From a virus (lineage: Duplodnaviria; Caudoviricetes): 57,411 nt of DNA. The notes under the pieces are model-generated. The model searched no databases and was not told the DNA's origin. It worked only from the letters and a program-made list of their open reading frames with translations. Position numbers and translations under genes: made by a program. The DNA lies in the IMG/VR virus record IMGVR_UViG_3300020001_000001, positions 1 to 57,411 of that record; one strand, given 5' to 3'. This document shows positions 1,052-50,700 of this stretch, one piece after another (within the stretch, counting starts at the first letter, position 1; every line of letters starts with the position of its first letter).

Positions 1052-1108
1052 CGTTCGTACTCCTGGAAAGGGAAACCCCTGGCGCACAATGCCAGGGGGA
1101 AAGCCAGC

Positions 1109-2485
1109 CTATTTACGCGCAACCTTGCGGGTTGTCGCGCCAGTCATCGCTTGCGCCATTGCGCCGCGCTCAGTGCCGTTGGCGATGGCTTTGGACGCGA
1201 TAACGGCGGCCAGCGGCGCGGAACGATTGGCTTTTGCGATTGCCTTGCGCTCCGCTTCATTCGCGGCGGCATTACGCTCCGCTTCGTCCCTGCGACGTGT
1301 TTTGTCCGCCGCTTCCTTCGCCGCGACCACGCGAGCAACGGTAGCGAGCCGTTCCGTCTCGCGTTTGGCCGCTTCCACCTTGGCCGCTTCCCGCGCCTTG
1401 GCCGCAGTCTTTTCCTGCGCTTTGGTCAGTAACGGGATCGTGACCTTTGCCGGTACGGCTGGAATCGGCGCTGGCGCAGTGTCGCCCGGTTCGGATATGC
1501 CGACGAAGTGCTTCCAACCCATGTTGACGATTACGATCATCTTGCGTGCGGTAGCAGCATCTGCGAATGCGCAGACAATCGCGCCGTTCCGGTCGATCAT
1601 GTCACCGTCATGCTCGCCCTTGCCTTGCGAGAATGGTCCAGCAATGGCCGAAAACGGATCGGCGTTATCCGCCTTCGCGCGTGATGCCAATTCGGCATGT
1701 TGCGCGTTATTTTGCGCCAATCGGTCAACACGCGCCGCCGGAGCGGGCGGCGTCGCGCTCTTTTTGTTCTTGTCGCCGACGGTACGCTTGCCAGTCGCTT
1801 TTTCCTCCGCCTCGGCCAGTATCTTGCCACTGGCCTTTTTCGCGCCCGCGGCAATCGCGGCATCCTTCGCGCCCTTGCCAATCTCAGTTGCTTTTTTCTC
1901 GCCGTGCGCACCTGTCAGTAACACCGCCACTGTTGGCGCTATCCAGCCTTCTTTAATCAGCGCCTTCAATTCCGGGTTGGCGTTCGCCAGTTTCATTGCC
2001 TTGCGTACCCAGCCGATTGTTTTGATGCCGCATTGTGCGGCAATCTGAGTCTCGGTCATTCCCTCGGCCTTCAATTCCAGGTACGCCGCGCCCTTCTCGT
2101 GCTCGGCCAGGTGTTTTCCGGCATTGGAGTGGATTAGGTTCAAGAGCATATCGCGCTTGCTGCGTTCCGTACCATCTGCGTTCCGCGCCTCAGGAATGAT
2201 TGACACTTTTTTGACGCCAGCGCGGATCGCCGCCTCACGGCGCCTATGCCCGGAAATGACAAAAGTCTCTTGGCCGACAATGCGAACGGTAATCGGCTCA
2301 TCCATCAAGTACCCAGTCGCGAGGGCCATTGATGACACAAGCGAAGCGTCATCTTCGTCAATGTCTGGATCAAACGCATCGCGGACATTGTATCCCGGAA
2401 TAACCTTTAAGTTATTCGGGTCAATAACGTGCCACGGGCCGGACATGGTGACTGTTTTCGGCATATCAACATACTTGCTTGCCAT
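1109..2485 (-). CDS. ParB/RepB/Spo0J-like protein 1 (ParB N-domain, HTH, long Ala/Lys-rich C-terminus)
   Basis: GYNVR and PITV...VISGHRRREAA arginine patch; HTH GMTETQIAAQCGIKTIGWVRKAMKL; GGAG RBS before ATG 2485. Confidence 0.8.
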   Translation of the reverse strand: MASKYVDMPKTVTMSGPWHVIDPNNLKVIPGYNVRDAFDPDIDEDDASLVSSMALATGYLMDEPITVRIVGQETFVISGHRRREAAIRAGVKKVSIIPEARNADGTERSKRDMLLNLIHSNAGKHLAEHEKGAAYLELKAEGMTETQIAAQCGIKTIGWVRKAMKLANANPELKALIKEGWIAPTVAVLLTGAHGEKKATEIGKGAKDAAIAAGAKKASGKILAEAEEKATGKRTVGDKNKKSATPPAPAARVDRLAQNNAQHAELASRAKADNADPFSAIAGPFSQGKGEHDGDMIDRNGAIVCAFADAATARKMIVIVNMGWKHFVGISEPGDTAPAPIPAVPAKVTIPLLTKAQEKTAAKAREAAKVEAAKRETERLATVARVVAAKEAADKTRRRDEAERNAAANEAERKAIAKANRSAPLAAVIASKAIANGTERGAMAQAMTGATTRKVARK

Positions 2486-2556
2486 TTGAATTACTCCATT
2501 GCACTTGCGCCAATTCTCGCAACCCGTTGAACGCGGCGCTTCTTTCAACGTCCAAA

Positions 2557-2585
2557 ATAGTAACACAAGGTTATCGTCATGTCAA
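2557..2585 (-). promoter_or_regulatory. Sigma70-like promoter for ParB-like gene 1
   Basis: TTGACA-17 nt-TACTAT on the minus strand. Confidence 0.7.
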
Positions 2586-2793
2586 ATAGCCCTATCAGGC
2601 TGAAGTATACTTCTGGCCTTATCCCAACGCGCCCGCATTTCCGCGCGAACAACATAGCCAAGAGCGCACGTCATACGCACTTACGCGGGCGCATACGCGC
2701 ACGCGAGAACGCTCCGGTACGCGCGAGCGCCCGACGCACCCACGACGTACGCGCAAACAGGCCCGGACGTTTCCGCCCGAGCCTGTTACGCTT

Positions 2794-2868
2794 ACCCACT
2801 ATACGATTACGCGCACCCACTACTAATCATGTGCGGGCACCCACTATACGATTACGCGCACCCACTAC
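2794..2868. repeat. 30-bp direct repeat ACCCACTATACGATTACGCGCACCCACTAC x2
   Basis: Copies at 2794-2823 and 2839-2868. Confidence 0.85.
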
Positions 2869-3082
2869 GCATCTGGTGTTTGCGGCCACGACAACCCCCG
2901 ACGTGGCCCAGATGTTTGCCGCAACCGCATTGTCGCCCGGCGAGCACCGCGGCCATGTCCTGCTTACGCTTTCGTACTGTCGTGATCGCTACCTCCAATT
3001 CAGCCGCTACACGTTTGACACCGCGGCCACCCAACAACCGCAACCTGATCGCCCGGTCAATCGACGGCTCTATTCGGTTCAT
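2852..3082 (-). CDS. Small HTH protein with a Cys/His-rich tail
   Basis: GRGVKRVAAELEVAITTVRKRK HTH pattern; CGCGKH..H...C tail. Confidence 0.55.
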   Translation of the reverse strand: MNRIEPSIDRAIRLRLLGGRGVKRVAAELEVAITTVRKRKQDMAAVLAGRQCGCGKHLGHVGGCRGRKHQMRSGCA

Positions 3083-3470
3083 CCGGCGCCTCCTGAAGCG
3101 CCCGCAACGCTCGCAGCGTCATCTGACCGTGACCTCCGAGCGCACGCCATGCCGCGTACGCCGCTGCCGAACCGCGTGGCGACCACGTATTGCGCGAGTT
3201 GTCCGCCGCCCGGATCGTGCGTGCGACCTGCACCATGAATCTGTCCAGTTTACCCGCATCCGCCGCCCAGGCATACCGGGTCAACTTCGCCCGGTATGCA
3301 GCGAGGAAAGCGTCTTTCGTCGGCGCTCCCGTGTCGTTCCGTCGTTTCAGTTCCGCCGAGATGATGACGGCTCTCCACTGTTCCAGCGGCCCGCAAAGCC
3401 TATCGAGCAACGTCTGCGTCCCTGTGCACCTGACCGCGCATCTAAACCTGTTGCGTACGTTCGGAATCAC
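3057..3470 (-). CDS. Hypothetical protein
   Basis: Translationally coupled ORF in the leftward operon. Confidence 0.6.
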   Translation of the reverse strand: MIPNVRNRFRCAVRCTGTQTLLDRLCGPLEQWRAVIISAELKRRNDTGAPTKDAFLAAYRAKLTRYAWAADAGKLDRFMVQVARTIRAADNSRNTWSPRGSAAAYAAWRALGGHGQMTLRALRALQEAPDEPNRAVD

Positions 3471-3748
3471 GACTTTCTCCCCTGCCCCATAATCGCCAAC
3501 GTGATATCGGTCAGTTCGTCGATGATCTGCTGTAGTCCAAGAACGCGGTCAACGTGCTGCTGTCGCGCAACGCCGTAAGCCTCTGGCGGCATCGTCTGGT
3601 AGTCGCGACCATGCGGACAGCACCCGGTCAGGTAATCCATTGCCGTTTGCAGGTTCGATATCGCCGCGCGGTTCGCGACGATCAACGCGACCGCGCTTGT
3701 CCCGTTGAGGTTAACCGTCGGCACGATTAGTGTCCGTTTCGTCTCCAT
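3467..3748 (-). CDS. Hypothetical phage protein (PHGRDYQ motif)
   Basis: AGGAGG RBS; ORF in operon. Confidence 0.75.
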   Translation of the reverse strand: METKRTLIVPTVNLNGTSAVALIVANRAAISNLQTAMDYLTGCCPHGRDYQTMPPEAYGVARQQHVDRVLGLQQIIDELTDITLAIMGQGRKS

Positions 3749-3773
3749 TTAATCCTCCTGAGTGAAGTATACT

Positions 3774-3869
3774 TCAGCCGCCCGCCAGCACCACTACCAG
3801 CGGACGCAGCACGATCGGGTACGCCGCGACAAACGCGACGAGCCCGGTCACGATCGACAGCGTTCTCAC
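3774..3869 (-). CDS. Tiny hydrophobic membrane peptide
   Basis: GTG overlaps the upstream stop; VRTLSIVTGLVAFVAAYPIVLRPLVVVLAGG. Confidence 0.4.
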   Translation of the reverse strand: MRTLSIVTGLVAFVAAYPIVLRPLVVVLAGG

Positions 3870-4012
3870 GAACGCCAGAGACGGTTCAGAAACCGCTGGT
3901 ACTCCTGGCCCGCTGCGTATCCGCGAGCGTAGCAGGTGGTCCCGACAAGTATTCCGACCGCCACGGCGACCGCTACGCAATAGGTAATCACGTCAAACAA
4001 ATCGAAGTGCAT
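3866..4012 (-). CDS. Small membrane protein (48 aa, below the ORF-track cutoff)
   Basis: GGAGG RBS; MHFDLFDVITYCVAVAVAVGILVGTTCYARG... Confidence 0.5.
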   Translation of the reverse strand: MHFDLFDVITYCVAVAVAVGILVGTTCYARGYAAGQEYQRFLNRLWRS

Positions 4013-4023
4013 CGTACCCCCTC

Positions 4024-4218
4024 CTAAAACCGATAGCGCCGAAACAATTCCTGCGCCGCCTTATGCTCTTTCAGCATTGCCCGGTACAGGTCCTGTCGCT
4101 TTTTCCTGTACTTCCTTCCCCGGCCCTCCGGGTTGAGCAACCGTCTCGTCGCCCGTATGACCTCCACGTTGCTCTGACTGACGTGTAGGCCCAATCGGCA
4201 GTACGTCCCGTACATCAT
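4024..4218 (-). CDS. Basic hypothetical protein
   Basis: ATGA overlap with the upstream gene. Confidence 0.65.
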   Translation of the reverse strand: MMYGTYCRLGLHVSQSNVEVIRATRRLLNPEGRGRKYRKKRQDLYRAMLKEHKAAQELFRRYRF

Positions 4219-4739
4219 TCGCGCTCCTGATCGCCTTCGCCGATCTCCGCAGCATCAGCGAACGCCTGCTCGATCCCGGCGTTTATCGACGGTCCCGCGT
4301 CGAACCAGCCCGCGATTTTAGCCATGCGCTCCAGGTGATCCACGATGGCCAGAGACTCGTCGCCAAGCGGAGTACCGCCCCGCGTCGCTGTCCAGTGTTC
4401 GCGAGCCGCCGCGAACGTCGGAAAATCGCGACACCCGGCTTGAACTCGGATCGTTTTTTCACGACGGGCCAGAAAAATATAGCCGTCTGACCGTTGACCT
4501 CCGCAGATGATCCCGGCGCCCGTCATGTCGGCGCCACTCATGTTGGCGCCCCTCATGTTGGCGCCCCTCATGTTGGCGCCCGTCATGTTGGCGCCCGTCA
4601 TGTTGGCGTCCCTCATGTCGGCGCCACTCATGTTGGCGTCCCTCATGTTGGCGCCCCTCATGTTGGCGCCCGTCATGTTGGCATTTCGGAAATCACGTTT
4701 GCCCGCAGCGTAACGCGCCTCAAATTCTTCACGGGTCAT
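4215..4739 (-). CDS. Pentapeptide-repeat protein
   Basis: Tandem A(N/D)M(T/R/S)(G/D) repeats; AGGAG RBS; C-terminal VQAGCRDF domain typical of phage pentapeptide proteins. Confidence 0.85.
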   Translation of the reverse strand: MTREEFEARYAAGKRDFRNANMTGANMRGANMRDANMSGADMRDANMTGANMTGANMRGANMRGANMSGADMTGAGIICGGQRSDGYIFLARREKTIRVQAGCRDFPTFAAAREHWTATRGGTPLGDESLAIVDHLERMAKIAGWFDAGPSINAGIEQAFADAAEIGEGDQERE

Positions 4740-4769
4740 CAGTTTTTCTCCTGTGTTTGGAAGTATACT

Positions 4770-4934
4770 TCAGGCCACCAAGGCCAAAAGCGTGTAGAGA
4801 AAAATCAGCACCATCGAGACGGCGCTAACCAGGGCGAAACCCCGCGACGCGGGGTTCCGTAGTCGTCGTGACAGTTCCGTCGCGTTGAGTATCAGCACGA
4901 GAACTGTCACGAGGTAAAGCCATTTAGCAGTCAT
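4770..4934 (-). CDS. Small two-TM membrane protein (54 aa)
   Basis: MTAKWLYLVTVLVLILNA...GFALVSAVSMVLIFLYTLLALVA; fills a gap in the operon. Confidence 0.45.
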   Translation of the reverse strand: MTAKWLYLVTVLVLILNATELSRRLRNPASRGFALVSAVSMVLIFLYTLLALVA

Positions 4935-5271
4935 CGGGATCGTAGTAGCACGAGTGTATGTCTACCGCGATCATGTCCGCGACGGACTTGAACTTGGTCA
5001 ATTCCCACAACCGACTATGCCGTCTCGCCAACGATTGCCGTACCCGAACACGCGAAATCTCGATGTACGTATCGCCGGTGAACCGCGTATCCTGAAAATC
5101 GCCGCCTTTCTCGGCGATAAGATGAAGGCACAAATCACGCAACGTCGGATCGTCCATCCGCGCCGCCTCACGGTTGAGATTGACATCAACCTTGACCGCT
5201 CCCGGACACGCGGGCATCCACATTGTCCCGGTCAGACCGCCGACAAGGCGCAGTTGGTATTTCCAGTTCAT
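4924..5271 (-). CDS. Hypothetical protein
   Basis: ORF tightly packed in operon. Confidence 0.65.
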   Translation of the reverse strand: MNWKYQLRLVGGLTGTMWMPACPGAVKVDVNLNREAARMDDPTLRDLCLHLIAEKGGDFQDTRFTGDTYIEISRVRVRQSLARRHSRLWELTKFKSVADMIAVDIHSCYYDPDDC

Positions 5272-5272
5272 G

Positions 5273-5830
5273 TCACACGTCCATTTCGTGATCGTGGAAC
5301 GACGTGTCGAGCGACGGCGTATCCAGCGGCGCGTCAGGATCGAGATACCGGCTTCGCTGTTTCTTCCGCCGTTTCTTGGCGGGGTAATCCCGCGTCAATG
5401 CCGACGAGCGTTGTTCCGTGACGACCGGCTCACCCTCCGCTATCTTGCGGGTAACTGTTGCCCTCAATACGGCCAGCGGGTGCGACGGTGCGAGCGCCCG
5501 GCCATTCAGGACCAGATACTCCACGACATCCGGCGTAGGCCACTTATCGGCCACAACCCTCGCCACGTCAGCCCGCGTCACCGGCTCACTCACAAACTGC
5601 GTTCCGGGTTCGGAAGTTACTTCCGAATTGTGGAACGTGGCGGTATGCCGGAACGTGGACGCCGAAGCCGCCTTCAACCCGACGTGGAGGTTGTCGCCTT
5701 CCGCGAGCGTCACGACCTCGCACCCGTCAAAAGCGATGTACGCCTTGCCGTCCACCACCTTAACCCACACACCCAGATCGTCGTCGAGCCGCGTGCGGTG
5801 TATCACTCGGTCCATGAGATGCTTAATCAT
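5273..5830 (-). CDS. Hypothetical protein
   Basis: GGAGG RBS; packed ORF. Confidence 0.65.
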   Translation of the reverse strand: MIKHLMDRVIHRTRLDDDLGVWVKVVDGKAYIAFDGCEVVTLAEGDNLHVGLKAASASTFRHTATFHNSEVTSEPGTQFVSEPVTRADVARVVADKWPTPDVVEYLVLNGRALAPSHPLAVLRATVTRKIAEGEPVVTEQRSSALTRDYPAKKRRKKQRSRYLDPDAPLDTPSLDTSFHDHEMDV

Positions 5831-6035
5831 CGTTACCCTCCTTCGTGTACTCGTACGACCACTGACCGATGCGATTGCCGTTCGCGTCCAGAACCGGCTT
5901 CACGAACGTACGTCTCGCGTAGACGGTCTGGCCTACCTGCCAACCGGCGTGCCGGATCAGCCGTTTCAGTTCCGGCCCCGGCTCGTCGAATGCAGCGTTG
6001 TCGCAGTCGATCGTGAGCGTGAATTTAGCTGGCAT
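5823..6035 (-). CDS. Hypothetical phage protein (DNAAF...LDANGNRIG motif)
   Basis: Motif recurrent in small phage proteins; packed ORF. Confidence 0.7.
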   Translation of the reverse strand: MPAKFTLTIDCDNAAFDEPGPELKRLIRHAGWQVGQTVYARRTFVKPVLDANGNRIGQWSYEYTKEGNDD

Positions 6036-6207
6036 CGGAAACCCCGCACGCTTTCAGGAAACGCGGCATATCGAAGCGCCGGTTGCCGTTCACGAGTTCA
6101 CTAGCGAAAGCCCTGGCGATACTGGCGCGCACCGTGTCCATACCGATGATCGCCGTATTCCAATCGCGAATGACTTTCGCGATCAGTTCGTAGTCCTTTT
6201 TCGACAT
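6025..6207 (-). CDS. Hypothetical phage protein (KKDYELIA...RFD..RFLKACG motif)
   Basis: AGGAG RBS; recognisable small phage protein motif. Confidence 0.75.
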   Translation of the reverse strand: MSKKDYELIAKVIRDWNTAIIGMDTVRASIARAFASELVNGNRRFDMPRFLKACGVSDAS

Positions 6208-6237
6208 TTCAGTCTCCTGTTTCGGTTGAAGTATACT

Positions 6238-6516
6238 TCAGACGGCGACTGGCGCCGTCCGAAGATATTCGATCAGATCGTCCAGTTCTCGCAAATCGCC
6301 CGCGAGCCGTGCGGCGTCATCTTCCGTGTTCTCGTACTCCTCGTACAACACCATGTCGCGGCACGACACATGCAGCCACTCGATACACCGGCGCCGGTGT
6401 TTCTCCGATTGCACCGCGCCTCTTTCGTCAAACCCGTACATGCACGCACCGGGATCATCGTTCGTCATGTACGAGCCCCACTGCGCCGCTCGTACCCAGA
6501 ACTGTGCGGGCGTCAT
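6238..6516 (-). CDS. Hypothetical protein
   Basis: ATGA coupling; AAQWGSYM..DPGACMYGF motif. Confidence 0.65.
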   Translation of the reverse strand: MTPAQFWVRAAQWGSYMTNDDPGACMYGFDERGAVQSEKHRRRCIEWLHVSCRDMVLYEEYENTEDDAARLAGDLRELDDLIEYLRTAPVAV

Positions 6517-6728
6517 TCGACCGTTCCCGACCAATATCTGAAGGTGTCGGGGTCCGATCTGTTCCACTTGTCGAGTAGTTCAAAAAACTCGACGCGCGTG
6601 ATATCTCTATGCTGAGTACTCCGCGTTGTGTGGACGAGCCTTTTCCCGGACGGTATGTGCAGACAAGTGTAGCGCCAGTCACCCGGCGACACCCGAGCGT
6701 GATGGAAATAATCTTGCGCCGTTTTCAT
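6513..6728 (-). CDS. Hypothetical protein
   Basis: TGATG coupling with the upstream gene. Confidence 0.6.
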   Translation of the reverse strand: MKTAQDYFHHARVSPGDWRYTCLHIPSGKRLVHTTRSTQHRDITRVEFFELLDKWNRSDPDTFRYWSGTVE

Positions 6729-6967
6729 CACCCGGCCACCTTCAGCCACTTGCCATCGTCCTGCTTCTCGTACTTTTGGCCTTTACCCGTACCCAGGCCG
6801 ACGCCAACGCGACGGTGACACGTCAAGCACATATTCCCCCAGGGTCCCATTTTTGTTTTGCCGTCAACGAACGCCGTCGTGATGGCGTGCGAGTGGTGCA
6901 GGTTAAGGTCGCACTGTGTCGGCGCATCGCCCATCCAGTATCGTTTCTTCGGGGCTTCATCGCTCAT
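6728..6967 (-). CDS. Hypothetical phage protein, possibly Zn-binding (DGKTKMGPWGNMC..C...GLGTGKGQKY)
   Basis: AGGAG RBS; conserved-looking phage motif. Confidence 0.75.
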   Translation of the reverse strand: MSDEAPKKRYWMGDAPTQCDLNLHHSHAITTAFVDGKTKMGPWGNMCLTCHRRVGVGLGTGKGQKYEKQDDGKWLKVAG

Positions 6968-7046
6968 TGTGGTTACTCCTGTTACCCTGGCTTCCCCAGG
7001 CTGCTACCGACGGCAAGCCGTCGGTAACGGTATGCGGAAGTATACT

Positions 7047-7382
7047 TCAAACTCGCCCGATCATGTTCGCCTTACGAATACTCTGCACGTCAATCCACTT
7101 CTCCAGACTAACTGGACGCAACTGCGTGTGATCTACCGCCCGGTACGTCCACGCCATAATCGGAAAGCCTGCTTTATCGACTCCGATGAGCCGCCACGCG
7201 GCGGCTTCACAGGGGACCATGGTGCAACCAACGCTGCCGTCTATTCGTTTATGCGCCTCGGCATAGCCCGTTTCGTGCGTATGGGGTAAAACGCAAATGC
7301 AGTTCGTGATCTTCACGATCTCTTTCGCCGCCATATCGTATGCTACGTCGTTCACTTTTAGTCCTGGGAATACGTCGGCCAT
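7047..7382 (-). CDS. Hypothetical protein
   Basis: AGGAGG RBS before ATG 7382. Confidence 0.7.
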   Translation of the reverse strand: MADVFPGLKVNDVAYDMAAKEIVKITNCICVLPHTHETGYAEAHKRIDGSVGCTMVPCEAAAWRLIGVDKAGFPIMAWTYRAVDHTQLRPVSLEKWIDVQSIRKANMIGRV

Positions 7383-7441
7383 CTTGTCCTCCTGTAACCG
7401 GGGCCGAAGCCCCGGTGTTGGTTGAAGTATACTTCGGGGTT

Positions 7442-7633
7442 TCAGCCCGTCTTCTGCATCAGGTTCAACGAGAGACTGATTTCGTCGTTGACCTTGACGC
7501 TCCCGTTTGTGCTGGCGACCAGATTGGTCTTGCCTGACTTGGAAGGCGTCGCCGCCTTCAACGCCCCCGGACCGATATCCATGGTGACGATCAACTTGTT
7601 GGCTTTCACCACGAACTCTACATTTTGTGACAT
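7442..7633 (-). CDS. Small conserved protein (PSKSGKT.LVAST.G motif)
   Basis: First gene after the leftward promoter. Confidence 0.7.
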   Translation of the reverse strand: MSQNVEFVVKANKLIVTMDIGPGALKAATPSKSGKTNLVASTNGSVKVNDEISLSLNLMQKTG

Positions 7634-7706
7634 ATTTCTTGTTCCGTTTCGGAAGTAATACTTCCGGCACTATTACCGGAAGGCGATCAGATTTCGATCG
7701 TCCCAA

Positions 7707-7735
7707 ACACTAGCACAACGACAACGCCCTGTCAA
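7707..7735 (-). promoter_or_regulatory. Sigma70-like leftward promoter
   Basis: TTGACA-17 nt-TAGTGT, with GTTGTGC before the -10 element. Confidence 0.7.
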
Positions 7736-7973
7736 GTCGCTGAAATCGACGGAAGTTACTTCCAACGGTCTCCCAACGCGCGTATCGCGATCTATTGATA
7801 CCGGGCGACGCGCGCTACGCGCGAACGCGCACGATCTGCGTACGCGAGTACCCGCATACCACATAGGCGCGCCGGCACGCACCCGCGAACGTCTACCAGG
7901 GGCGAACGCGGAAAACCGAAACTTCGGCAACCCGGTCCTAATCATGTGAGACCCACTACTAATCATGTGAGAT

Positions 7974-8002
7974 TTGACACGACATTGCCGTTGTGCTACA
8001 CT
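7974..8002 (+). promoter_or_regulatory. Sigma70-like rightward promoter (divergent pair)
   Basis: TTGACA-17 nt-TACACT, with GTTGTGC before the -10 element. Confidence 0.75.
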
Positions 8003-8064
8003 ATATTTTGGATCGGTGGAATTTCTCTGCCGAACGGAAGTTACTTCCGAAGGAGTGTGGAAAA

Positions 8065-8295
8065 ATGCTGGTAGCGATTGCCGATACGCCGGAAGAACTT
8101 CGCGGCGAGATACTGAAACTGCTTATATTCGCCGAGAAAACGCAGCGCACGCAGTCGGAACAACGCACCGCTGTTCGCGGCAAAATGGCAGCACGACACG
8201 CCGCCAATGTTCTTCAGAACGTGGTCGAGGACGTAAAACGTATCGGGATATTACCCAAAACGGAGTTGAAACGTGGTGAAGACCCTACGAGTTAA
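8065..8295 (+). CDS. Hypothetical protein
   Basis: AAGGAG RBS; first gene after the promoter. Confidence 0.65.
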   Translation: MLVAIADTPEELRGEILKLLIFAEKTQRTQSEQRTAVRGKMAARHAANVLQNVVEDVKRIGILPKTELKRGEDPTS

Positions 8296-8500
8296 CGGCG
8301 ACGATCTGCCACCGGCCTATGTCGATGGCTGGATGGCGCACAAGAACAGCGTCAGCCGCAACAATAACCCCTACAACATCATGCGGCAGTTCGCGTCGTA
8401 CGAACTGTGGATGGAGGGTTGGACGGCGCGTAACTACGCCGGGAAGAACAACGAAGACATGAGTACGCTGGACGACTATGTCCCGCGTGTAACACTGTGA
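8273..8500 (+). CDS. Rmf-like fold small phage protein
   Basis: AY.DG..A......NPY......W.EGW pattern. Confidence 0.55.
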   Translation: MVKTLRVNGDDLPPAYVDGWMAHKNSVSRNNNPYNIMRQFASYELWMEGWTARNYAGKNNEDMSTLDDYVPRVTL

Positions 8501-8516
8501 AAGGAGTAATCTGACA

Positions 8517-8789
8517 ATGCCTTACGTGCTTGACGAAACGTCGCAGCGTGCGCAGATTGAGAACCTGGACGTGAACGGCGAGGCGTTCTGCCGCGCCAAA
8601 CGGTTCGACGCTGACGAGACACTGAAAGACACGCCTGCCGCTCTGCTGTCCGTGTGGCGCAACGCCGTCCAGGCGACCGTGCTGCGGATCGAGAAACGTA
8701 CCGGGCACAAATACACGGTCGAGTGCGGCGAGTTCCGCACGCAGTCACGCGATATCGTTGCGTGCATGGCGATCACGAGGACAGAATAG
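8517..8789 (+). CDS. Hypothetical protein
   Basis: AAGGAG RBS. Confidence 0.7.
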   Translation: MPYVLDETSQRAQIENLDVNGEAFCRAKRFDADETLKDTPAALLSVWRNAVQATVLRIEKRTGHKYTVECGEFRTQSRDIVACMAITRTE

Positions 8790-8985
8790 TGGCAAAGGAT
8801 GACGAGTCAGTTTATCGGATGATCCGATCGCGGACCTGAGACAGTCTGTTCGGATGATCCGACCTGGATACCCGACGTGTACCCGACGAACGCGAAAGGA
8901 CAGGTGCCGTTTGCCCGTGCGGTTATGGAGAGCGTCGCGACGAGTATCGAGCGGGCGTTGCCGCTTTTGGAAAAAGGAAAAGCCG

Positions 8986-9186
8986 ATGATACTACGCAGA
9001 GTTGACCGCTTACAGAAAAATGACCGCGTAAAACTTAACGCGCTCGTCTATCACGTACGTTTTATCGGCGGCGCGGAAACCGCAGGGTACACAGGAGTCC
9101 GTTTCGAGGCGGCGAACCGGGTCGGGACAGAACACGAAATCGCCGCCGTGCTTCAGAACGACGACTTGATCGAGGTCGTGATATGA
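8986..9186 (+). CDS. Hypothetical protein
   Basis: AAGGA RBS; ATGA coupling downstream. Confidence 0.55.
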   Translation: MILRRVDRLQKNDRVKLNALVYHVRFIGGAETAGYTGVRFEAANRVGTEHEIAAVLQNDDLIEVVI

Positions 9187-9440
9187 AGGCGCAACTCGCG
9201 ATGGACATGATGGCCCGCATGGCCGACGACTGGGGCGACACCGCCCAGGCCATGCTGTCCGTCACTATCGCCCTGGTGATGCGGAAGTTGGAAGTAACTT
9301 CCGTCACCGTTGCCCTGGACGAAGTTCGCGAAACGATGGACCGTTTCGCGATCATTCGGACGTACTCGGAGGTTGATGGGCGTCCGTACATGACTGTAAC
9401 TGTGGAGAAAAAGCGTGATACCGATCTACCAACAAGCTAA
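9183..9440 (+). CDS. Hypothetical protein
   Basis: Coupled ORF. Confidence 0.6.
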   Translation: MKAQLAMDMMARMADDWGDTAQAMLSVTIALVMRKLEVTSVTVALDEVRETMDRFAIIRTYSEVDGRPYMTVTVEKKRDTDLPTS

Positions 9441-9819
9441 AGACGATTGTTTCGCGGCGTGTATCGCGAGCCTTCTGCACTGTCCGCTCAGTTTCGTACC
9501 GCCGATGACGGCGGTATCTGACGTACGTCAGTACGACGGCAAACTGCAAAAGTGGCTGCACCAGTACATCCGCTGCGGCGGCTATGTGGAGTTTGGCTTC
9601 CCCGAGCCGCTGCCGGAACTTATGTCGCGTATGATGGTCAGCGCCGAAACCAGCTATTACATACTCACCGGCACGAACCGTGCCGCCGCCGCGCATTCGG
9701 TCGTCTGTCTCGGCGGTATGATCGCCCACGATCCGTCAGCCGAGCCGGGACACCACACGCTCGTCGGTCCGGTTAACGACGGTTTCTATCGCGTTGGTTT
9801 CTTGCTACTCGGTCCATAA
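9415..9819 (+). CDS. Papain/C39-like cysteine peptidase-fold protein
   Basis: QQ..DDCFAACIASLL ... HSVV......HDP putative Cys-His-Asp triad. Confidence 0.6.
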   Translation: MIPIYQQAKDDCFAACIASLLHCPLSFVPPMTAVSDVRQYDGKLQKWLHQYIRCGGYVEFGFPEPLPELMSRMMVSAETSYYILTGTNRAAAAHSVVCLGGMIAHDPSAEPGHHTLVGPVNDGFYRVGFLLLGP

Positions 9820-9828
9820 GCCAGCGAT

Positions 9829-9858
9829 TTGACAACTACCCCGCAGTTGTGCTTAAAT
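9829..9858 (+). promoter_or_regulatory. Sigma70-like promoter for ParB-like gene 2
   Basis: TTGACA ... GTTGTGC-TTAAAT. Confidence 0.55.
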
Positions 9859-9918
9859 AGACTTTCTGGCGGATCGTCCACCAGGAATAACCTTACCATT
9901 GATGAAAGCCCCCTTACC

Positions 9919-11076
9919 ATGGCTAAAGCAGCGAAGACGAAGCCTGTGGCCGCTACCAAGGCCAAAGGCCCGAGCCTGAAGATGATTGAGTTCACCGCCG
10001 CCGCGATCAAGGATGCTATTGCCGCGACCGGCGCCAAGAAGTCCGGGAAGTTACTTCTGGTCCCGCTGGACCAGATCACGGAGGCCCCCGGCTTCAACCT
10101 CCGTATCGACAACGAGAAGTACCGCGCAGGTATCGCGAAACTCGCCAAGTCGATTGAGGCGGAAGGCTTTTATGAAAGCCATCCGCTGTCGGGCTTCGCC
10201 GCCGAAATCGACGGCGCGGCGAAGATCGTCGTCATTGACGGTCATCGCCGGTTTCAGGCGCTACAGCAACTCGCCGCCAACGGTTTCGAGTTTGACGGTA
10301 TCCCCGTCGTGCTGAAGCCGGGAGACGCGGATAGCCTCGATCTGGCGGTCGCGCTGGACAAGGAAAACTCCGCCGAAGAACTGTCCATGCTGGAGCGGGC
10401 GGTGCTGGCGAAGCGTATGCTGACCGCGGGTCTTGCCCGCAAGGAGATTGCTGATCGCCTGGACTGTTCGGAGCGTCACGTTGGCGATCTCCTGGTCCTG
10501 ATCGACGCGCCGAAGGCCATTCGCGATCTCGTCCGCGACGGCAAGATCGCTGCATACGAGGCCATCGCCAAGATGCGCAAAGAAGGCGGCGCCGACAAAA
10601 TCCTCGAAGCCGCGGCCAAGGCTGACGAACTGGCCGCTGAGAAAGCGGAGAAGGCCACGAAGCTGACCAAGACGACGCTGGAAACGGGCGGCGTCAAACC
10701 GCCGAAACTCCAGGTCTTCAAGATGAACTTCAAGGCGACCGCCGGCTCGCCGTTCGAGTACGAAGACGTTGAACCGTTCCTCGGCCTGCTCGGCGACGAG
10801 GATTGGTTCAAGCCAGTCCGCAAGAAGTCGCAGCGGATGGCCCTGTCCGATATGCAGATCGAGGTCACGATCCGGCGCCCGAAGACGGACACCGAAGTCG
10901 AGGCCGAAGCCGACTCGAAGGTGGCGGCTGACGCGGCGAAACCGCCGAAGGCCGGTCGGAAGCAGCCCGCAGCGGACCCGGACCTGGACGACGACGATGG
11001 CGGTTTGGGCGACGACGACGGCGCCGTTGACCTCCGCGCCCTCGGCATCGCGGAACCCGCCAACGCGGAAATGTGA
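9919..11076 (+). CDS. ParB/RepB/Spo0J-like protein 2 (ParB N-domain, HTH, acidic tail)
   Basis: APGFNLR and IVVIDGHRRFQAL arginine patch; HTH GLARKEIADRLDCSERHVGDLL. Confidence 0.85.
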   Translation: MAKAAKTKPVAATKAKGPSLKMIEFTAAAIKDAIAATGAKKSGKLLLVPLDQITEAPGFNLRIDNEKYRAGIAKLAKSIEAEGFYESHPLSGFAAEIDGAAKIVVIDGHRRFQALQQLAANGFEFDGIPVVLKPGDADSLDLAVALDKENSAEELSMLERAVLAKRMLTAGLARKEIADRLDCSERHVGDLLVLIDAPKAIRDLVRDGKIAAYEAIAKMRKEGGADKILEAAAKADELAAEKAEKATKLTKTTLETGGVKPPKLQVFKMNFKATAGSPFEYEDVEPFLGLLGDEDWFKPVRKKSQRMALSDMQIEVTIRRPKTDTEVEAEADSKVAADAAKPPKAGRKQPAADPDLDDDDGGLGDDDGAVDLRALGIAEPANAEM

Positions 11077-11097
11077 TCGGAAGTTACTTCTGAAACG

Positions 11098-11617: not shown

Positions 11618-12342
11618 ACCAAGAACAAGCCTACGACTGGCTGAAAGGCCGAATGACGGGACCAACGAACGGCGCGCAAGCGACGCAACTGGCTACGCGC
11701 TTGAGCGCCGATCTCGCCAGACTCGTGAGCGGGCGCGCGACACAGGACCTGTATGGTTGGAGCGCCCGGCTGGAGAACTACGAATTTGAGACGGGCTTCC
11801 CCGGCTCGTTGTTCGTCTCTCCTGACGGGCGTCTTGTCGGCACCTGGATCATGGGTAACGACTACCGGGTCAAGTCGCAGTTCTACGGCGGGTATCCGGC
11901 GACCTACCTATCTCGCGTGCGGTCGCTGTTCCGCGACAAGAAACACGTTCTTCATTTGTTCTCGGGGATGGTTGACACCACCCTATATCCCGGTGACACG
12001 GTCGATCTGAATTTATCTCTGGCGCTGGCCCATCCAAAAGGCGGCACGCACTATACCGACGATGCGCAAACCCTTACCCGCGTGCCGCTGGAAAAGTATG
12101 ACCTCGTGTTGGCCGACCCGCCCTATTCGGTTGAGGACGCCGAACACTATCAGACAACGATGGTGAAACGGAATAAGGTCATGACGGCGTTGGCGAGGTT
12201 GCCGAGGGGCGCGCACGTCGTATGGCTCGACCAGGTACTGCCCATGTGGCGGAAAGACACATTCGACCTAACGGCGGTTGTCGGTATCGTTCGCAGTACA
12301 AACCACCGCTTCCGGGTTTGCAGCATTTTCAGAAAGAAGTAA
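11614..12342 (+). CDS. Putative amino (N6A/N4C) DNA methyltransferase
   Basis: SAM-binding LHLFSG and catalytic DLVLADPPY. Confidence 0.7.
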   Translation: MNQEQAYDWLKGRMTGPTNGAQATQLATRLSADLARLVSGRATQDLYGWSARLENYEFETGFPGSLFVSPDGRLVGTWIMGNDYRVKSQFYGGYPATYLSRVRSLFRDKKHVLHLFSGMVDTTLYPGDTVDLNLSLALAHPKGGTHYTDDAQTLTRVPLEKYDLVLADPPYSVEDAEHYQTTMVKRNKVMTALARLPRGAHVVWLDQVLPMWRKDTFDLTAVVGIVRSTNHRFRVCSIFRKK

Positions 12343-12376
12343 CTTCCGATACCTCGATACCACAAGGAGGGCTGCG

Positions 12377-12817
12377 ATGTCGCTCACGGCACGTCAGACA
12401 GATGTCCTGCGCTGCTTGCGCCTTGGGCTATCCGATAAAGAGATCGCCGCCACGCTTAACGTCGCGAAAGGCACCGTGAAATCGCATAAGGCGCTGCTGT
12501 TCCGCGCGCTCAACGTGACCAATCGCACCGCCGCCGCTATGCACTGGCTAACAACCAAAGGAGAAACCATGGACCCGCTGCCGCCAAAACCGTTTAACCT
12601 CACCGCGCGACGAACGGATGGCTACGTCGTGAACATTGTCGAGAGCGGCAAGGCTCTGTCTGTCACCGTGACGCGTACCGCTGACGACGTGAGTTGGCGC
12701 GGCGTTCGCGATACGGTGGAAGAAGCCGTATCGCTGGCGGCACGAATTGTCGTCGAGCAACAACTGATCCAACAAATGCACGAAGGGGATACTGACCGTG
12801 ATAGTTCTCGGGGCTGA
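12377..12817 (+). CDS. LuxR-family HTH transcriptional regulator with a C-terminal extension
   Basis: LTARQTDVLRCLRLGLSDKEIAATLNVAKGTVKSH...LNVTNRTAA; AAGGAGG RBS. Confidence 0.85.
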   Translation: MSLTARQTDVLRCLRLGLSDKEIAATLNVAKGTVKSHKALLFRALNVTNRTAAAMHWLTTKGETMDPLPPKPFNLTARRTDGYVVNIVESGKALSVTVTRTADDVSWRGVRDTVEEAVSLAARIVVEQQLIQQMHEGDTDRDSSRG

Positions 12818-13370
12818 TTTTTTCCACGCGGTTCGCGACAATCTGTTTAGCGGACGCCTGTCGCAATCTCAGGTTGACGGCATGTCGTTTATCGCGGATG
12901 CGTGGAACCTGAAGTACGCGGCCAACGATCCGCGCTGGCTGGCCTACGCGTACGCTACGTCTTACCTGGAGACGGCGCACACGATGCAGCCTATCGAGGA
13001 GTTCGGTAGGGGACACGGCTACCCGTACGGTGTGCCTGACCCGGTGACGCACCAGACGTATTACGGTCGAGGATACGTCCAACTTACATGGCTGGCCAAC
13101 TACCGCAAACTCGGCCAGTTGCTCCATCTCGATCTGGTCACGCATCCTGAAATGGCCCTCGATCCGCGAACCGCTGCGGCGATCATGTTTGAGGGCATGA
13201 TCGACGGCCTGTTCACCGGCAGGAAACTGGCCGACTATTTCAACTCGCACCGTAGCGACGCGTTCGGCGCCCGCCGCATCATCAACGGCACGGATCATGC
13301 CGGGGATATCGCGGACTATTACGGCGAGTTTTTGGACGCCCTGGCGGACCAGAAGTATACTTCCGATTGA
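12798..13370 (+). CDS. Glycoside hydrolase family 19 endolysin
   Basis: LAYAYAT...ET...MQPIEE; YYGRGYVQLTW..NY; ARRIING. Confidence 0.85.
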   Translation: MIVLGADFFHAVRDNLFSGRLSQSQVDGMSFIADAWNLKYAANDPRWLAYAYATSYLETAHTMQPIEEFGRGHGYPYGVPDPVTHQTYYGRGYVQLTWLANYRKLGQLLHLDLVTHPEMALDPRTAAAIMFEGMIDGLFTGRKLADYFNSHRSDAFGARRIINGTDHAGDIADYYGEFLDALADQKYTSD

Positions 13371-13371
13371 C

Positions 13372-13400
13372 TTGACACGATGACGGCGTTGTGCGATACT
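13372..13400 (+). promoter_or_regulatory. Sigma70-like promoter
   Basis: TTGACA-17 nt-GATACT, with GTTGTGC before the -10 element. Confidence 0.6.
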
Positions 13401-15613: not shown

Positions 15614-15676
15614 AAGTCTGGTAGCACTAGGAGGTAGCGAGACGAATATACATGCGAAGTTACTTCGTGTCCAGTT

Positions 15677-45607: not shown

Positions 45608-45862
45608 TCAATATCCCTTTTTACCCAAAATCCAGTTGCTCGCGTACAGCGACTTGCCGTCCTCAGTGCGACGCAACTGGCTGACCGGATACCAGTTCAT
45701 TCGCGGCGGTCGCGGCGGCACATCGAGCAACACCGCGCTTTCGGTGTAGTTCTCAACCCATCCGGTCCACTTAGGAATGTCCGAATACTTGTCTTCCTCG
45801 AACTCCTGCATAACCGGAATGAGTTTCACCAACTCCGGTGTCTTGTGTATCTCCATCGACAT
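45608..45862 (-). CDS. Hypothetical protein
   Basis: GGAGG RBS; W.PVSQL motif. Confidence 0.6.
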   Translation of the reverse strand: MSMEIHKTPELVKLIPVMQEFEEDKYSDIPKWTGWVENYTESAVLLDVPPRPPRMNWYPVSQLRRTEDGKSLYASNWILGKKGY

Positions 45863-45866
45863 GTTA

Positions 45867-46148
45867 TTACCAAACCTCCAAATTGAGGATGCGGCGTGCG
45901 TCGTCCATATTGTCGCACCAGTGGACCTCCAGCCCAAAGTCCTCGCGTAACTCCCGGTGCCGTTTCGCTTGTTGGCGAGACGGCGTCTCTCCGGGTCGCT
46001 TGAACTCGATCAGCACGGCTCTGCCTGCTTTGCCGAATATCCGGTCGTTCGCGCCGCGCGTGCCGATGAACATCAGCTTGCGTTGCAGCCAACCGGCGTC
46101 TTCGGCTTCGCTACAGATCGCCTGTTCGATCTCGGCTTCGCGTGCCAT
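45867..46148 (-). CDS. VRR-NUC domain nuclease
   Basis: EAEIE; G..DRIF; IEFKRPG......Q. Confidence 0.88.
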   Translation of the reverse strand: MAREAEIEQAICSEAEDAGWLQRKLMFIGTRGANDRIFGKAGRAVLIEFKRPGETPSRQQAKRHRELREDFGLEVHWCDNMDDARRILNLEVW

Positions 46149-46479
46149 TCTTCACCGCTATCCAAAGTTTATCCATCGCCGCTGCGATGCGCTTATCTTG
46201 CGCGGGTTCCGCACGGCGCGTCGCCTGTTCGGCAGCGTGTTTCGGCATTTTAGTCTGGTGTTTTTTCAGCACCGCCATCTGCGCCTGAGCGCGTTCCCAC
46301 GCTGCCGCAAAGGCTTCCTCCGGCGTATCGCCCTCGGCGTACTCCGAGAAGTAGTTGGTAGTCGCTCCGTTCGGCTGGTGGTATTGCAGGTTCACTCGAA
46401 AGAACCCTGCCAACTGAAAGCAATTAAGCAGGTGCCAGCCCTGCTTGTTCGCCTCGAAAACCATCTCTGTGAAAGCCAC
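46111..46479 (-). CDS. Hypothetical protein
   Basis: GTG with GGAG RBS, downstream of a promoter. Confidence 0.6.
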   Translation of the reverse strand: MAFTEMVFEANKQGWHLLNCFQLAGFFRVNLQYHQPNGATTNYFSEYAEGDTPEEAFAAAWERAQAQMAVLKKHQTKMPKHAAEQATRRAEPAQDKRIAAAMDKLWIAVKNGTRSRDRTGDL

Positions 46480-46556
46480 GCGCAGTCTCCGTTTTTGATT
46501 TAGTGTTGTCGTCCCGGAAGTTACTTCCGTTTCGGTCGATCTACGACCGAAACGAC

Positions 46557-47784: not shown

Positions 47785-50700
47785 TCAATCCTTGCGGTAG
47801 ATTGTTGCGAGATAGCCGGAGGCATCCAACGGTAAGCCAGTGGTCCAGGCTATCGCCTCAACCATGCACTTACGCAGCGCCTCCAACGTGTAACAGTTAT
47901 CACCCTTGCGGACAAGAGCAATCAGTTCGTCGTGGACGGAGCCGACGAGTTCGAAGCCAAACTCGCGAGCCCGGATCATCCCGATCTTCAAGATGTCGCG
48001 AGCAGTCGCTTGCACCACGTTCTCGCACTGTTTGCCGCCGCTGCTAAAGACGCGGCCCCATTGATGCGTGATCTGGTTCTTACCCATATATGACAATACG
48101 CGGCGCGTGAATACCGTTGGTTCGCCGGTAACACGATCCTTTCCCTCAAACTCCTTCGTGACGATCCGGGGTTTGTAGTAGTACATCGGGCGACCGGACG
48201 GCAGTTGAACCGTCAGGTAGGGGCCATTCATCGCAAAGCGTATCTTGCCATTGACCGTCGTCGGACGACCGTTCAACGCCGCCTTGGCTGCGTTCTCCAG
48301 GGCCGCCCAGAACTCCGGTATTTCAGAATAAATCTGTCGGAACAGTTTGACGTGCCGGTGCGCTTCCTCGCGTGTGATATCCACGCCCATGTTCTCGGCG
48401 TAACCCCACAGCCCGGTACGCTTGTTCCGCTTGAACTCGCCGCCGCCTAGCTGATAGGTGCAATTATGGACGATCAGCGGCCCGTCGCTTGTTAGCACCA
48501 TGAAACGATTTTGCGGTCCCGAATTGAGAATGTCGAACGTAGGCTCCCTTACACTTCGCTTGATCGGCGATAATGTGCTCGGCGGACAGGCCCTGTCGTA
48601 TTTTACGGGCAACTGTTCCGGCGTCGCGATATCGCGGTGCAAATCGTTCGGCAAATTCAACCGCGCACATTCGTTCTCCGCGGTAGTCGATCCATCGCAG
48701 GTCCTTTTTGTTTCGGTTATTCCGGGCTTCGGAAACGAAATGGATATTACCGGCCTCATAGTTTCCGTCATTGTCCTTCCGGTCGATGTCCAAAGTTGGA
48801 TCGCCGTGTCCCGGAAGCGTAAGACAATGCGCAATAAATTCGTATACGTCCCAAAATCTACACTTGATACCCCGTCCGCCATAGCGGTGTCCAGCATCTC
48901 CAGCGCCGCGGCACCGCGACTCAATCGCATAATATCGGTTTGCGAGTCTATCGACCACGTCTCGACCCGCGTGCCGAAATCGAACGTACACACCATTGGC
49001 GTGTTCACGTTGCGCCCGTCTTGCGCAGGGCAAGCAACTTCTACTCTTGCCAAGTTCAAGATTTTGTTGATAGACCGCCGCAACGTAGCCACAGGAACAT
49101 CTGCAAACATAGTGCAATCCATTCGTTCTGCGACTGGTGGAGACAACTTCCCACTCGCCAAAGCGATAGCCTTTTTCGCGATATCCGTATTTTGTGACAG
49201 CCGACATGCGCTCTCCCATTTATTAGCTCGAACGAGTACCTCGTGTCCTGGCGTCACTCGGACGCCGCCCAAATCTATTACGTATTTGTCGCCTTGGTAG
49301 ACAACGCCGCCGTGCGACACAAAATTCTCTCCATCGAACATTCTGTCAGCCGAAGTAACTTCAGAGATTTCAGCCCAACCGCGTTGGGTCAAAACCAGCG
49401 TATCGGATGCGAAACAACCCAGGACGGCGGGCTTGCATATCTGCCGCTCGGCTCCGGTGATCGCTGCGTAGGCTTTCTGATACAGTTCCACCCCGAAGTC
49501 GCGGTACGGGTCGCGGCCCTCGGCAAATACGTTCAACATACGCGTGCAGCCAGACAGCCACGCCGTTACGGCGGTTTCGATAGCCTTCAGATCACACACC
49601 AGAAGTTCGTAGCCTTCGGGTGCCTGAAATGCGGAGCGGACGGAACCGGCCAGCGCGATCATCGGCTCGTCGAACAGAAGCGACAGATCGGACATATTGC
49701 CGCTCTGGATGACGCGAGCCGCGACCTCCAACTTTTCCCAATTAAGCGGCGTATCGTCTTCCGGCTTCAGTTGCTTGGGCGTGTGGGTCAGGTTGTGTGG
49801 CTGTGGGCCGCGTCCAGCCCAACGCAGCGTACGAGCGGCGCCGACGAACTGAAACGAGTGTCGCAGGTTGTCGTCCGCCGAGAGTCGCCGCATGATCGCG
49901 GAGAACTTCTTAACGCTCGTGCGGCTGACGTTCTGCCGAAGACGTAACGCCTTCCGGGCGTCGTTCGTCAGCACTGGCTCACCGGCCTTCCGGCACTCTG
50001 TATCTTTCGCCAGCATTTTCTTCACGCTGGCTTTCTGAAGGTCCTCATATTCGTAGCCGCGTTCCTGAAGCCACGGAAGTAACTTCGCAGTCGAGTTGGG
50101 GTTCCACAGTTTCGTGAGCGTCTTCAATTCGCGTTTCAGTTCGGCGCGGCGGACCTCCGCGAGAATATCGGCGTTCTCGACGAACTCCCGGTTGACTGGC
50201 AGTCCACGATCGTTGATCTCCTGGTCACACTCGTACGCATCCCATTCGTCATCGGCGACCTCGTAGCGGATCAGCTTATCGCGAATGCCGTCCTCCGCGA
50301 CAACGTCCTGCGCGTTATAGTCACAGAACCGCTGCCAATCTTCGGGATCAGTTTCGCGAGTGCGCCTGACATGTGGGTTTTTCTGCGTGATCCTCTGCGG
50401 CTGACAGAACAGCTTGATAAGTCTGGACCCTTCCTTGTCCTTCAGCCTGAACTGCGGCAGACCCATAGCCGTGCCGATTTGAAACAGATCGCCGGTGAAC
50501 GACTGCATGTTGGCGAGCGCCGTCGTGCAGCGCCAGCCCTTCAGCGGCGTAGCGATCTTCAGGGTATTCATCGTGATAAGACGCTCGAAGGCTGCGTTGA
50601 AAGCCCACTTCTCGACCTCGGGATCGAGAAGCGCCACCTTCAGGTCAGCCGGGAACGGGTTGCACGTCAGATCGACATGTTGCACACCGAAGCCGTCGTG

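Follow-up and report, generated by a model that had tools for sequence, protein, structure and literature searches.

A genome-wide array of evenly spaced palindromes in a tailed phage, with a KorB-like orphan ParB protein as its candidate reader

ParB proteins that form clamps with cytidine triphosphate (CTP) are known from DNA segregation (ParABS), nucleoid occlusion (Noc) and plasmid gene silencing (KorB). The parS site is 16 bp long, Noc is an orphan ParB whose palindromic sites are numerous and scattered, and the operator of KorB is a 13-bp palindrome similar to the one described here. KorB can slide as far as ~1.5 kb away from a site and, going by the title of a reference, has 12 binding sites on plasmid RK2 (available text of PMC11790492). 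Here we analyse a virus DNA of 57,411 bp, referred to as the window, which is the whole of IMG/VR record IMGVR_UViG_3300020001_000001, has direct terminal repeats and carries a completeness rating of 100%. The window contains a palindrome repeated across its length and two ParB-like genes, parB1 (1109–2485, minus strand) and parB2 (9919–11076, plus strand). The original prediction, made from the sequence alone, saw in the two proteins candidate readers of the palindromes that act without ParA and without an integrase. Our analysis points, with a modest preference over the alternatives taken together, to a KorB-like ParB system that lacks a partner, is spread over the genome of a virulent phage and would load clamps from 49 sites.

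The array extends from 2602 to 57251, has no strand and consists of 49 copies at a mean spacing of 1172 bp. Forty-one of these are GAAGT-N-ACTTC, against 0.04 expected, and eight are a 12-bp variant, GAAGTATACTTC, against 0.05 expected. The flanks widen the consensus to cGGAAGT-W-ACTTCCg, the core of which is a 13-bp palindrome of 6-1-6 layout, GGAAGT-W-ACTTCC (written out as GGAAGTWACTTCC and GGAAGTTACTTCC); 40 13-mers match it with one mismatch allowed. The spacing is far more even than random placement would give, with a coefficient of variation (CV) of 0.50 versus 0.97, and none of 5,000 random placements was as low. In a genome that is ~91% coding, 28 sites lie wholly within genes, 15 are intergenic and six straddle gene ends, so that 21 of the 49 touch the 8.8% of the genome that is non-coding. 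The coding sites occupy all three reading frames (17, 7 and 3 of 27), where they are translated as EVTS, KLL and S(N/I)(F/L). Among 401 sampled Pseudomonadota genomes, a sample shown without taxon names and in which the host order may be missing, the 13-mer was not enriched and had at most two copies per genome, as did the control. The array is real, spans the genome and is under selection, and to this extent the original prediction stands.

The 12-bp variant occurs almost exclusively in the early leftward operon, where its copies at 3764, 4760, 6228, 7037 and 7424 lie in intercistronic gaps, after the stop codon of one gene and before the ribosome-binding site of the next. Three of the 12-mers overlap the TGA stop of the upstream gene, with the Shine-Dalgarno sequence 4–9 nt further on, and 12-mers of this type are almost missing from relatives of the phage. 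Such positions, and the 21 of 49 sites at gene junctions, are what would be expected if the element worked as a small RNA hairpin in mRNA processing or stability; a nuclease-control or replication signal (Chi-like, priming or nicking) would likewise fit the particular family A DNA polymerase that the motif-bearing clade shares (eight of nine genomes versus one of nine). We consider this explanation very improbable. At −4.2 kcal/mol for the 15-mer the hairpin has little stability, all copies share a sequence and not just a stem, the sites are strand-symmetric and regularly spaced within genes, and the sampled bacterial genomes show no enrichment. To our knowledge, the Chi, priming and nick sites that have been described are asymmetric, which also counts against it.

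The phage is kin of the AH2/BcepNazgul (Casjensviridae) group of tailed phages. In the large terminase it shares 58% identity with Burkholderia phage AH2 and ~54% with many Casjensviridae, and its gene order agrees with AH2, Erythrobacter phage R16L and Sphingomonas phage Carli. The same GGAAGT motif recurs in the relatives G001–G005, R16L, G419, G420 and G431. It is present at 0.9–1.6 copies per kb in all five viral contigs whose ParB2 is 45–51% identical to that of the window, the two near-complete contigs among these five have 74 and 61 copies, and R16L has 25. Carli has no copy of the GGAAGT form and carries 30 copies of a 6-1-6 variant, GGAAAY-S-RTTTCC. De novo palindrome counting among 80 terminase relatives recovered further GGAAGT carriers and two more 6-1-6 variants, namely GGAACT-N-AGTTCC with 22–24 copies in G412 (a 57-kb record; L172–L174) and AAAAGC-N-GCTTTT with seven copies in the 14.7 kb of L119, a viral contig found as a terminase relative. 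Positions of sites are kept in orthologous genes, 14 of 19 in G005 and 15 of 19 in G004, at protein identities of 37–73%; R16L shares none of 15 with the window. In all five genomes tested (the window, G005, G004, R16L and Carli) the spacing is more regular than random, with a CV of 0.50–0.74 versus ~0.97 (P ≤ 0.0044).

Other palindromes were seen beside ParB2 homologues. AH2 (L010) and G427 have no array and carry ACAACA-N3-TGTTGT in two to three copies, and G435, also without an array, has TATTCA-N-TGAATA in three. These low-copy 6-N-6 palindromes might be few-site ParB operators and possibly the ancestral state. Xylophilus phage Lumi (L078, OQ067477.1, 38779–79372) encodes a ParB2 homologue at 32% identity yet has an unrelated genome type; its early region contains 11 intergenic copies of TTACT-N5-AGTAA, mostly directly 5′ of start codons, an element that differs from the GGAAGT motif. 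We found no array in Delftia phage RG-2014, whose ParB is 31% identical, and no enriched palindrome in the 28 loci of at least 5 kb that were scanned among 37 distant metagenome ParB loci (23–34% identity).

ParB2 is an orphan ParB/KorB-like protein of 385 residues and a core gene of the clade. It has a basic N-terminal tail, a ParB N-domain (PGFNLRI, DGHRRFQA, EN), a helix-turn-helix (HTH), a β-rich C-domain, an acidic tail and a conserved C-terminal peptide. The translations of both ParB-like reading frames contain the G(Y/F)N(V/L)R and GHRR motifs and the downstream HTH that had been read from them, and both match the PHROG family phrog_1033, ‘ParB-like partition protein’, ParB2 with an E value of 4e-40. 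Among the Pfam families HTH_ParB, ParB_N and KorB, only HTH_ParB passes its cut-off in ParB2 (26.0 versus 22.6 bits). The ParB2 profile matches solved structures of Noc, Spo0J and ParB with E values of 2.7e-8 to 1e-5. An AlphaFold2 model of ParB2, with a mean predicted confidence (pLDDT) of 76, has as its best Foldseek match KorB of plasmid RK2 (8qa9; E 4e-9). Residues 43–257 superimpose on KorB (8qa9_B) with a Z score of 14.2 and a root mean square deviation of 3.4 Å over 191 residues, while ParB (6t1f) reaches a Z score of 12.4 and Noc also trails. The HTH aligns with the DNA-binding domains of KorB, Noc and ParB (1r71, Z score 7.9; 6y93; 6s6h). The structural and profile check that had been called for thus gives KorB as the nearest relative by model and Noc, Spo0J and ParB by profile, and the modelled structure of ParB2 has the ParB/KorB fold.

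Several of the residues expected of a nucleotide-binding ParB are present in the ParB2 of the window. Arg62 in box I, Gly108, His109, Arg111, Glu149 and Asn150 are invariant in 25 of 25 close homologues, and Arg110 is nearly so. Several features of the family weigh against a straightforward reading of ParB2 as a CTP-dependent clamp: the arginine of the canonical ENLQR box (box III) is missing from the ParB2 family, the glutamate of this box is often lost among the wider motif-bearing relatives, and GHRR is replaced by GHTR in R16L, G419 and G420 and by GESR in G412. With these replacements and the lost glutamate the CTP switch is not assured, and the GHRR arginine patch, which the original prediction noted in both proteins, varies among motif-bearing relatives. 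CTP dependence is plausible for the ParB2 of this phage, judging from its motifs, and not as a constant of the family.

Beyond the HTH, residues 264–339 form a confidently modelled β-rich C-domain; the C-terminal part of the protein gave no match above threshold in the ESM Atlas. Residues 1–21 and 341–368 are disordered, and the low-complexity tails noted earlier are as described, Ala/Lys-rich in ParB1 and acidic in ParB2. At the C-terminus (11004–11076), after the acidic stretch, the last ~17 residues (..APDLRxLGIAEPAxAxL) are kept in most of the 25 homologues; this segment looks like a docking peptide for a partner. No ParA turned up. Six-frame searches of the whole genome with AAA_31, CbiA and Phage_integrase found nothing, and neither ParA nor an integrase was seen in scans of 49 open reading frames (ORFs) with Pfam and 53 with PHROG, as had been predicted. 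The N-terminal ParB motif that activates ParA, (L/F/I)G(K/R)G(L/F/I) (available text of PMC12704722), occurs neither in ParB1 or ParB2 nor, in any of the 25 ParB2 homologues, within the first 80 residues. Among the Pfam and PHROG matches there were likewise no dioxygenase families and no KorA/TrbA-like partner, for which no targeted search was made.

The case for ParB2 as the reader rests on its distribution, which we followed by tblastn of 61 window ORFs against the relatives and by all-against-all clustering of the ORFs of 18 genomes. The ParB2 cluster is the sole DNA-binding-type family of the window, outside structural and replication genes, that is present in every motif-bearing genome. 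ParB2 is encoded in all eight near-complete motif-bearing genomes and in three partial ones, and 12 of 12 relatives that lack ParB2 have no motif in their 22-kb loci (one-sided Fisher P = 0.0057, a statistic that ignores phylogeny). In the tree of ParB2 sequences one side holds 10 of the 11 motif-bearing rows, and G412 is a long unplaced branch. The two ParBs do not travel as a pair. ParB1 is restricted to the window and three close relatives (G001, G003 and G005), and ParB2 accompanies the motif without ParB1 in R16L, Carli, G004, G412, G419, G420 and G431. Since ParB1 is found in four genomes only, it lies outside the core system, and the view of the pair as a unit has to be given up.

A number of observations weigh against ParB2 as the reader. 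ParB2 homologues of 35–41% identity occur without an enriched palindrome in nine relatives (AH2, G407, G408, G424, G427, G428, G430, G434 and G435), so ParB2 is not sufficient for an array. The original prediction had counted against itself the finding of the same ParB pair in phages lacking any enriched palindrome; what is common in such phages, AH2 and eight viral records, is one member of the pair, ParB2. The motif-bearing phages all belong to one clade, so the association is inseparable from shared descent, and the type of DNA polymerase tracks the motif even better than ParB2 does (8/9 versus 1/9). The recognition helix, (S/T)x(R/K)(H/Y)(V/I/L)x(D/N)(L/V), is common to all and shows no clean covariation with the motif variants, each of which is represented by one genome; a search for more relatives of the ParB proteins of G412 and Carli yielded none. 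Finally, a site lies within 400 bp of parB2 in just one of six relatives with a lower site density. Given the nine motif-less relatives and the helix that does not clearly covary, we put ParB2 forward as an inferred reader; it is the likeliest candidate, and we lean towards it slightly. The proposal that ParBs read the palindromes therefore survives in part, with a ParB-family protein as the best candidate for an array that is real and selected, and with the nine array-less relatives standing against it.

The same nine relatives and the missing covariation would be explained if another protein, either a small phage protein or a DNA-binding protein of the host, read the palindromes and the ParBs bound few sites or did another job. 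Many small early ORFs without detectable homologues could conceal such a protein, and the motif variants could follow differences between hosts (Erythrobacter versus Sphingomonas). Against this, the all-against-all comparison of 18 genomes yielded no other DNA-binding candidate common to the motif-bearing genomes, and the 13-mer is not enriched in the sampled Pseudomonadota, among which, as said, the host order may be missing. We regard another reader as improbable. Individual candidates were considered and set aside. Both methyltransferases are limited to the closest relatives. The LuxR/GerE-type HTH gene at 12278–12817 on the plus strand (E 5e-15) has no counterpart in any relative, which also counts against another reader. 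Its end overlaps the start of ORF 12798–13370, which tracks the motif (6/9 versus 0/9) and which we read as a GH19-type endolysin from a sequence signature and from the GH19 gene in the R34L1 paper.

Locally, the motif is most clearly tied to a ParB gene at parB1. ParB1 has 458 residues and is composed of an N-domain (PGYNVRDAF, SGHRRREAA, SN), an HTH, a small conserved middle domain (GPF..GK..D.NG..C..GW) and the Ala/Lys-rich tail. It matches phrog_1033 with an E value of 4e-30, with Pfam ParB_N below its cut-off, and a library of 1.84 billion proteins yields 33 representatives of its family at E ≤ 1e-30. ParB1 and ParB2 are 22% identical in pairwise comparison, and their family profiles align with 99.5% probability (hhalign; E 1e-22) over 182 columns that cover the N-domain and HTH, which agrees with their description as divergent paralogues. 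The gene has a predicted sigma-70-like promoter at 2557–2585 on the minus strand (TTGACA-N17-TACTAT with TG, 10/12) and is followed directly after its stop by a terminator-like hairpin (1076–1098, minus strand). Seventeen bp upstream of the −35 element stands an operator-like copy of the 12-bp variant GAAGTATACTTC (2602–2613). The parB1 gene is itself free of motif copies in all four genomes that have it, and in the same four genomes one to three copies stand 117–224 bp 5′ of its start, among them the tightest clusters, with copies 25 and 36 bp apart. These upstream copies are the strongest local connection between motif and ParB gene and look like an operator; with the gene motif-free and copies at its promoter, ParB1 is probably controlled through the same sites. 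Between this promoter and the next gene, at 2660–2980, are iteron-like direct repeats comprising TTACGCGCACCCACT and its kin four times, a 45-nt tandem pair and TACGCGCAC units. They could be an origin, a pac site or a second binding array. In G003 (L014), the translation of the stretch upstream of ParB1 appeared to show a similarly repetitive pattern.

The surroundings of parB2 are less telling. A promoter of its own had been assigned to each ParB gene; the full promoter predicted for parB1 bears this out, whereas parB2 has TTGACA at 9829–9834 and no −10 element to match it that passed the scan. Adjacent motif copies had also been pointed out for both genes, and all are present: beside the one upstream of parB1, one lies within parB2 (10047–10057, coding for GKLL) and one 4 bp past its stop (11080–11090). 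The copies beside parB2 are no commoner than the density of sites predicts. The position of the inner one is not kept in G005, G004 or R16L, and G005 and G004 have a copy 20 bp beyond the end of the parB2 stop codon.

Promoter-like sites elsewhere carry the motif as well. In a scan of 1–18.8 kb, it lies inside or adjoining three of the four best sigma-70-like sites, either 9–17 bp upstream of the −35 element or within the spacer. At 15645–15673 on the minus strand, the promoter-like site TGGACA-N17-TATATT has a copy (15656–15666) in its spacer, and at 13352–13400 on the plus strand a 12-bp copy is followed, 9 bp on, by TTGACA-N17-GATACT with TG. These sites, the conserved copies 5′ of parB1 in four of four genomes and the fact that the nearest structure is KorB in its KorA-locked form (8qa9) would suit a ParB2 that reads the palindromes for transcription, as a KorB-style global repressor or timer that slides to promoters and is locked there by a small partner, with the intragenic sites keeping promoters within range. 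KorB, KorA and TrbA act in this way (available text of PMC11790492 and PMC13584720). We nevertheless think it unlikely that the purpose is a transcriptional one of this kind. Twenty-eight of the 49 sites are inside long late genes with no promoter-like site near, and neither the even spacing nor the positions kept in the tape-measure, terminase and portal genes is needed for promoter control. Moreover, no KorA/TrbA-like partner was among the ORFs scanned by Pfam and PHROG, in which no search was aimed at them, and the phage is lytic and lacks an integrase. The promoter-adjacent copies favour a regulatory component of the system, and the evenly spaced intragenic majority favours a genome-wide one.

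For the KorB-like system that we prefer, we infer motif reading by ParB2, dependence on a nucleoside triphosphate (NTP), sliding and a biological purpose, which might be connected as follows. ParB2 would be made from the early rightward operon, and a dimer would bind the 13-bp palindrome through the HTH. The 49 sites would then act as nucleation or loading points, one per ~1.2 kb, from which NTP-dependent clamps (with CTP by analogy to KorB) would close and spread, until all phage DNA, and no other DNA, became marked by ParB. Such marking could lead to coating, organisation or protection of the replicating DNA, or to long-range control of transcription. ParB1 would be a later duplicate, probably controlled via these sites as well, and a second function may come with it. 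By analogy with the ~1.5 kb of KorB, the even spacing fits a limited sliding range of the clamps. Selection for one site per ~1–2 kb, with single sites even inside essential genes, argues for a need to have the whole genome within reach, and a function of this kind is implied. One point of the analogy tells against part of the scheme: KorB with CTP does not condense DNA in vitro (available text of PMC11790492), which weakens the idea of compaction.

A bolder form of this proposal is that, in a clade of lytic phages that infect alphaproteobacteria, a ParB/KorB clamp of the plasmid type has been converted into a ‘self’ coat for the whole genome, with loading sites selected at about one per sliding range, even in essential genes. 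While replicating, the phage DNA would be kept covered at all times, or condensed in a compartment of its own, and this separation from the DNA of the host would serve protection, replication or packaging; a downstream partner would be recruited by the conserved acidic tail and C-terminal peptide of ParB2. We offer this tentatively, as a possibility that we doubt more than we credit; if true, it would be a widespread and undescribed mode of phage genome organisation.

What makes the array of wider interest is that a virulent phage keeps ~50 evenly spaced putative clamp sites despite the constraint they place on its own coding sequences. It could be a new layer of phage genome organisation or of defence evasion, and, as a natural system, it could be used to test what distance ParB-type clamps cover in vivo. 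The variants GGAAGT, GGAAAY, GGAACT and AAAAGC may furnish compact orthogonal protein–site pairs as tools. In the literature, as far as the available texts go, we found no description of genome-wide ParB-type palindromes in a lytic phage. The string ‘palindrom’ is absent from the available text of the R34L1 Erythrobacter phage paper and of the 2025 survey of ParB folds (PMC12185513 and PMC12704722), and literature searches with the motif 11-mer returned unrelated primers only. The case contributes the cultured-phage anchors R16L and Carli, the conservation of site positions, the four motif variants in one clade, and the motif-free second paralogue with its operator-like copies.

The remainder of the genome is that of a siphovirus-type phage. 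A structural module occupies the minus strand, with the tail genes at one end (18.7 kb) and the terminase at the other (43.6 kb), and the replication genes comprise an SNF2-type helicase, a family A DNA polymerase with an endonuclease insertion, an Enc34-type single-stranded DNA-binding protein, a DUF2800 exonuclease and a VapE-type primase-helicase (PHROG and Pfam scans for both sets). Two divergent early arms meet at ~7.7–8.0 kb. Megablast of 25 kb gave no nucleotide-level match to known phages. Among 185,579 bacterial species genomes we found no prophage kin or close relatives (best relatives at most 31% identical), which fits a virulent phage. A single ParB2 sequence used as the query found no relatives among viral contigs; an alignment query recovered them. 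The polymerase (47785–50889, minus strand) has 1034 residues and an endonuclease-like insert, with a PHROG endonuclease match at residues 511–571. An early gene at 4215–4739 on the minus strand codes for a pentapeptide-repeat protein (Pfam Pentapeptide, E 1.6e-24); proteins of this kind can mimic DNA, and an anti-gyrase or anti-restriction role is possible. A long ORF at 45838–46503 on the plus strand is an antisense artefact of the true minus-strand genes, one of which codes for a VRR-NUC-like nuclease (45867–46151).

Among known systems, KorB and its operator OB on the IncP-1 plasmid RK2 are the most similar. Both have a protein of the ParB-CTPase family with an HTH, KorB being the best structural match of ParB2, and in both dyad-symmetric sites are scattered over a replicon of ~60 kb, some adjacent to promoters and some distant from them. 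The phage differs in having 49 sites that are mostly coding and evenly spaced, where RK2 has 12; in being a lytic phage replicon that encodes no ParA (IncC on the plasmid) and no ParA-binding motif; and in the sequences of the motif and of the C-terminal domain of ParB2. Canonical ParABS systems and Noc share with ParB2 the fold of the N-domain and HTH, the box I arginine, the GxRR and EN motifs and the profile matches. The window nevertheless has no ParA, its sites are not clustered at an origin, its motif is 13 bp (6-1-6) and its replicon is a phage genome; with neither ParA nor a ParA-activating motif, it is not a Type I ParABS system. The stoperators of Cluster A mycobacteriophages are also many sites for one phage protein across a whole genome (available text of PMC9283540). 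They are, however, asymmetric and bound by the monomeric immunity repressor of temperate phages, and they stop transcription elongation, whereas the window has palindromic sites, those in genes using every reading frame, and a ParB as their candidate reader, and the phage has no integrase and no prophage kin in the bacterial genomes searched, so that this is not a stoperator-type system. The ParB activators of phage thymine dioxygenases (5mYOX) provide a further example of an orphan ParB homologue in phages without ParA (available text of PMC13229309). Those proteins have a partner dioxygenase and no obvious DNA-binding domain, whereas ParB2 has an HTH.

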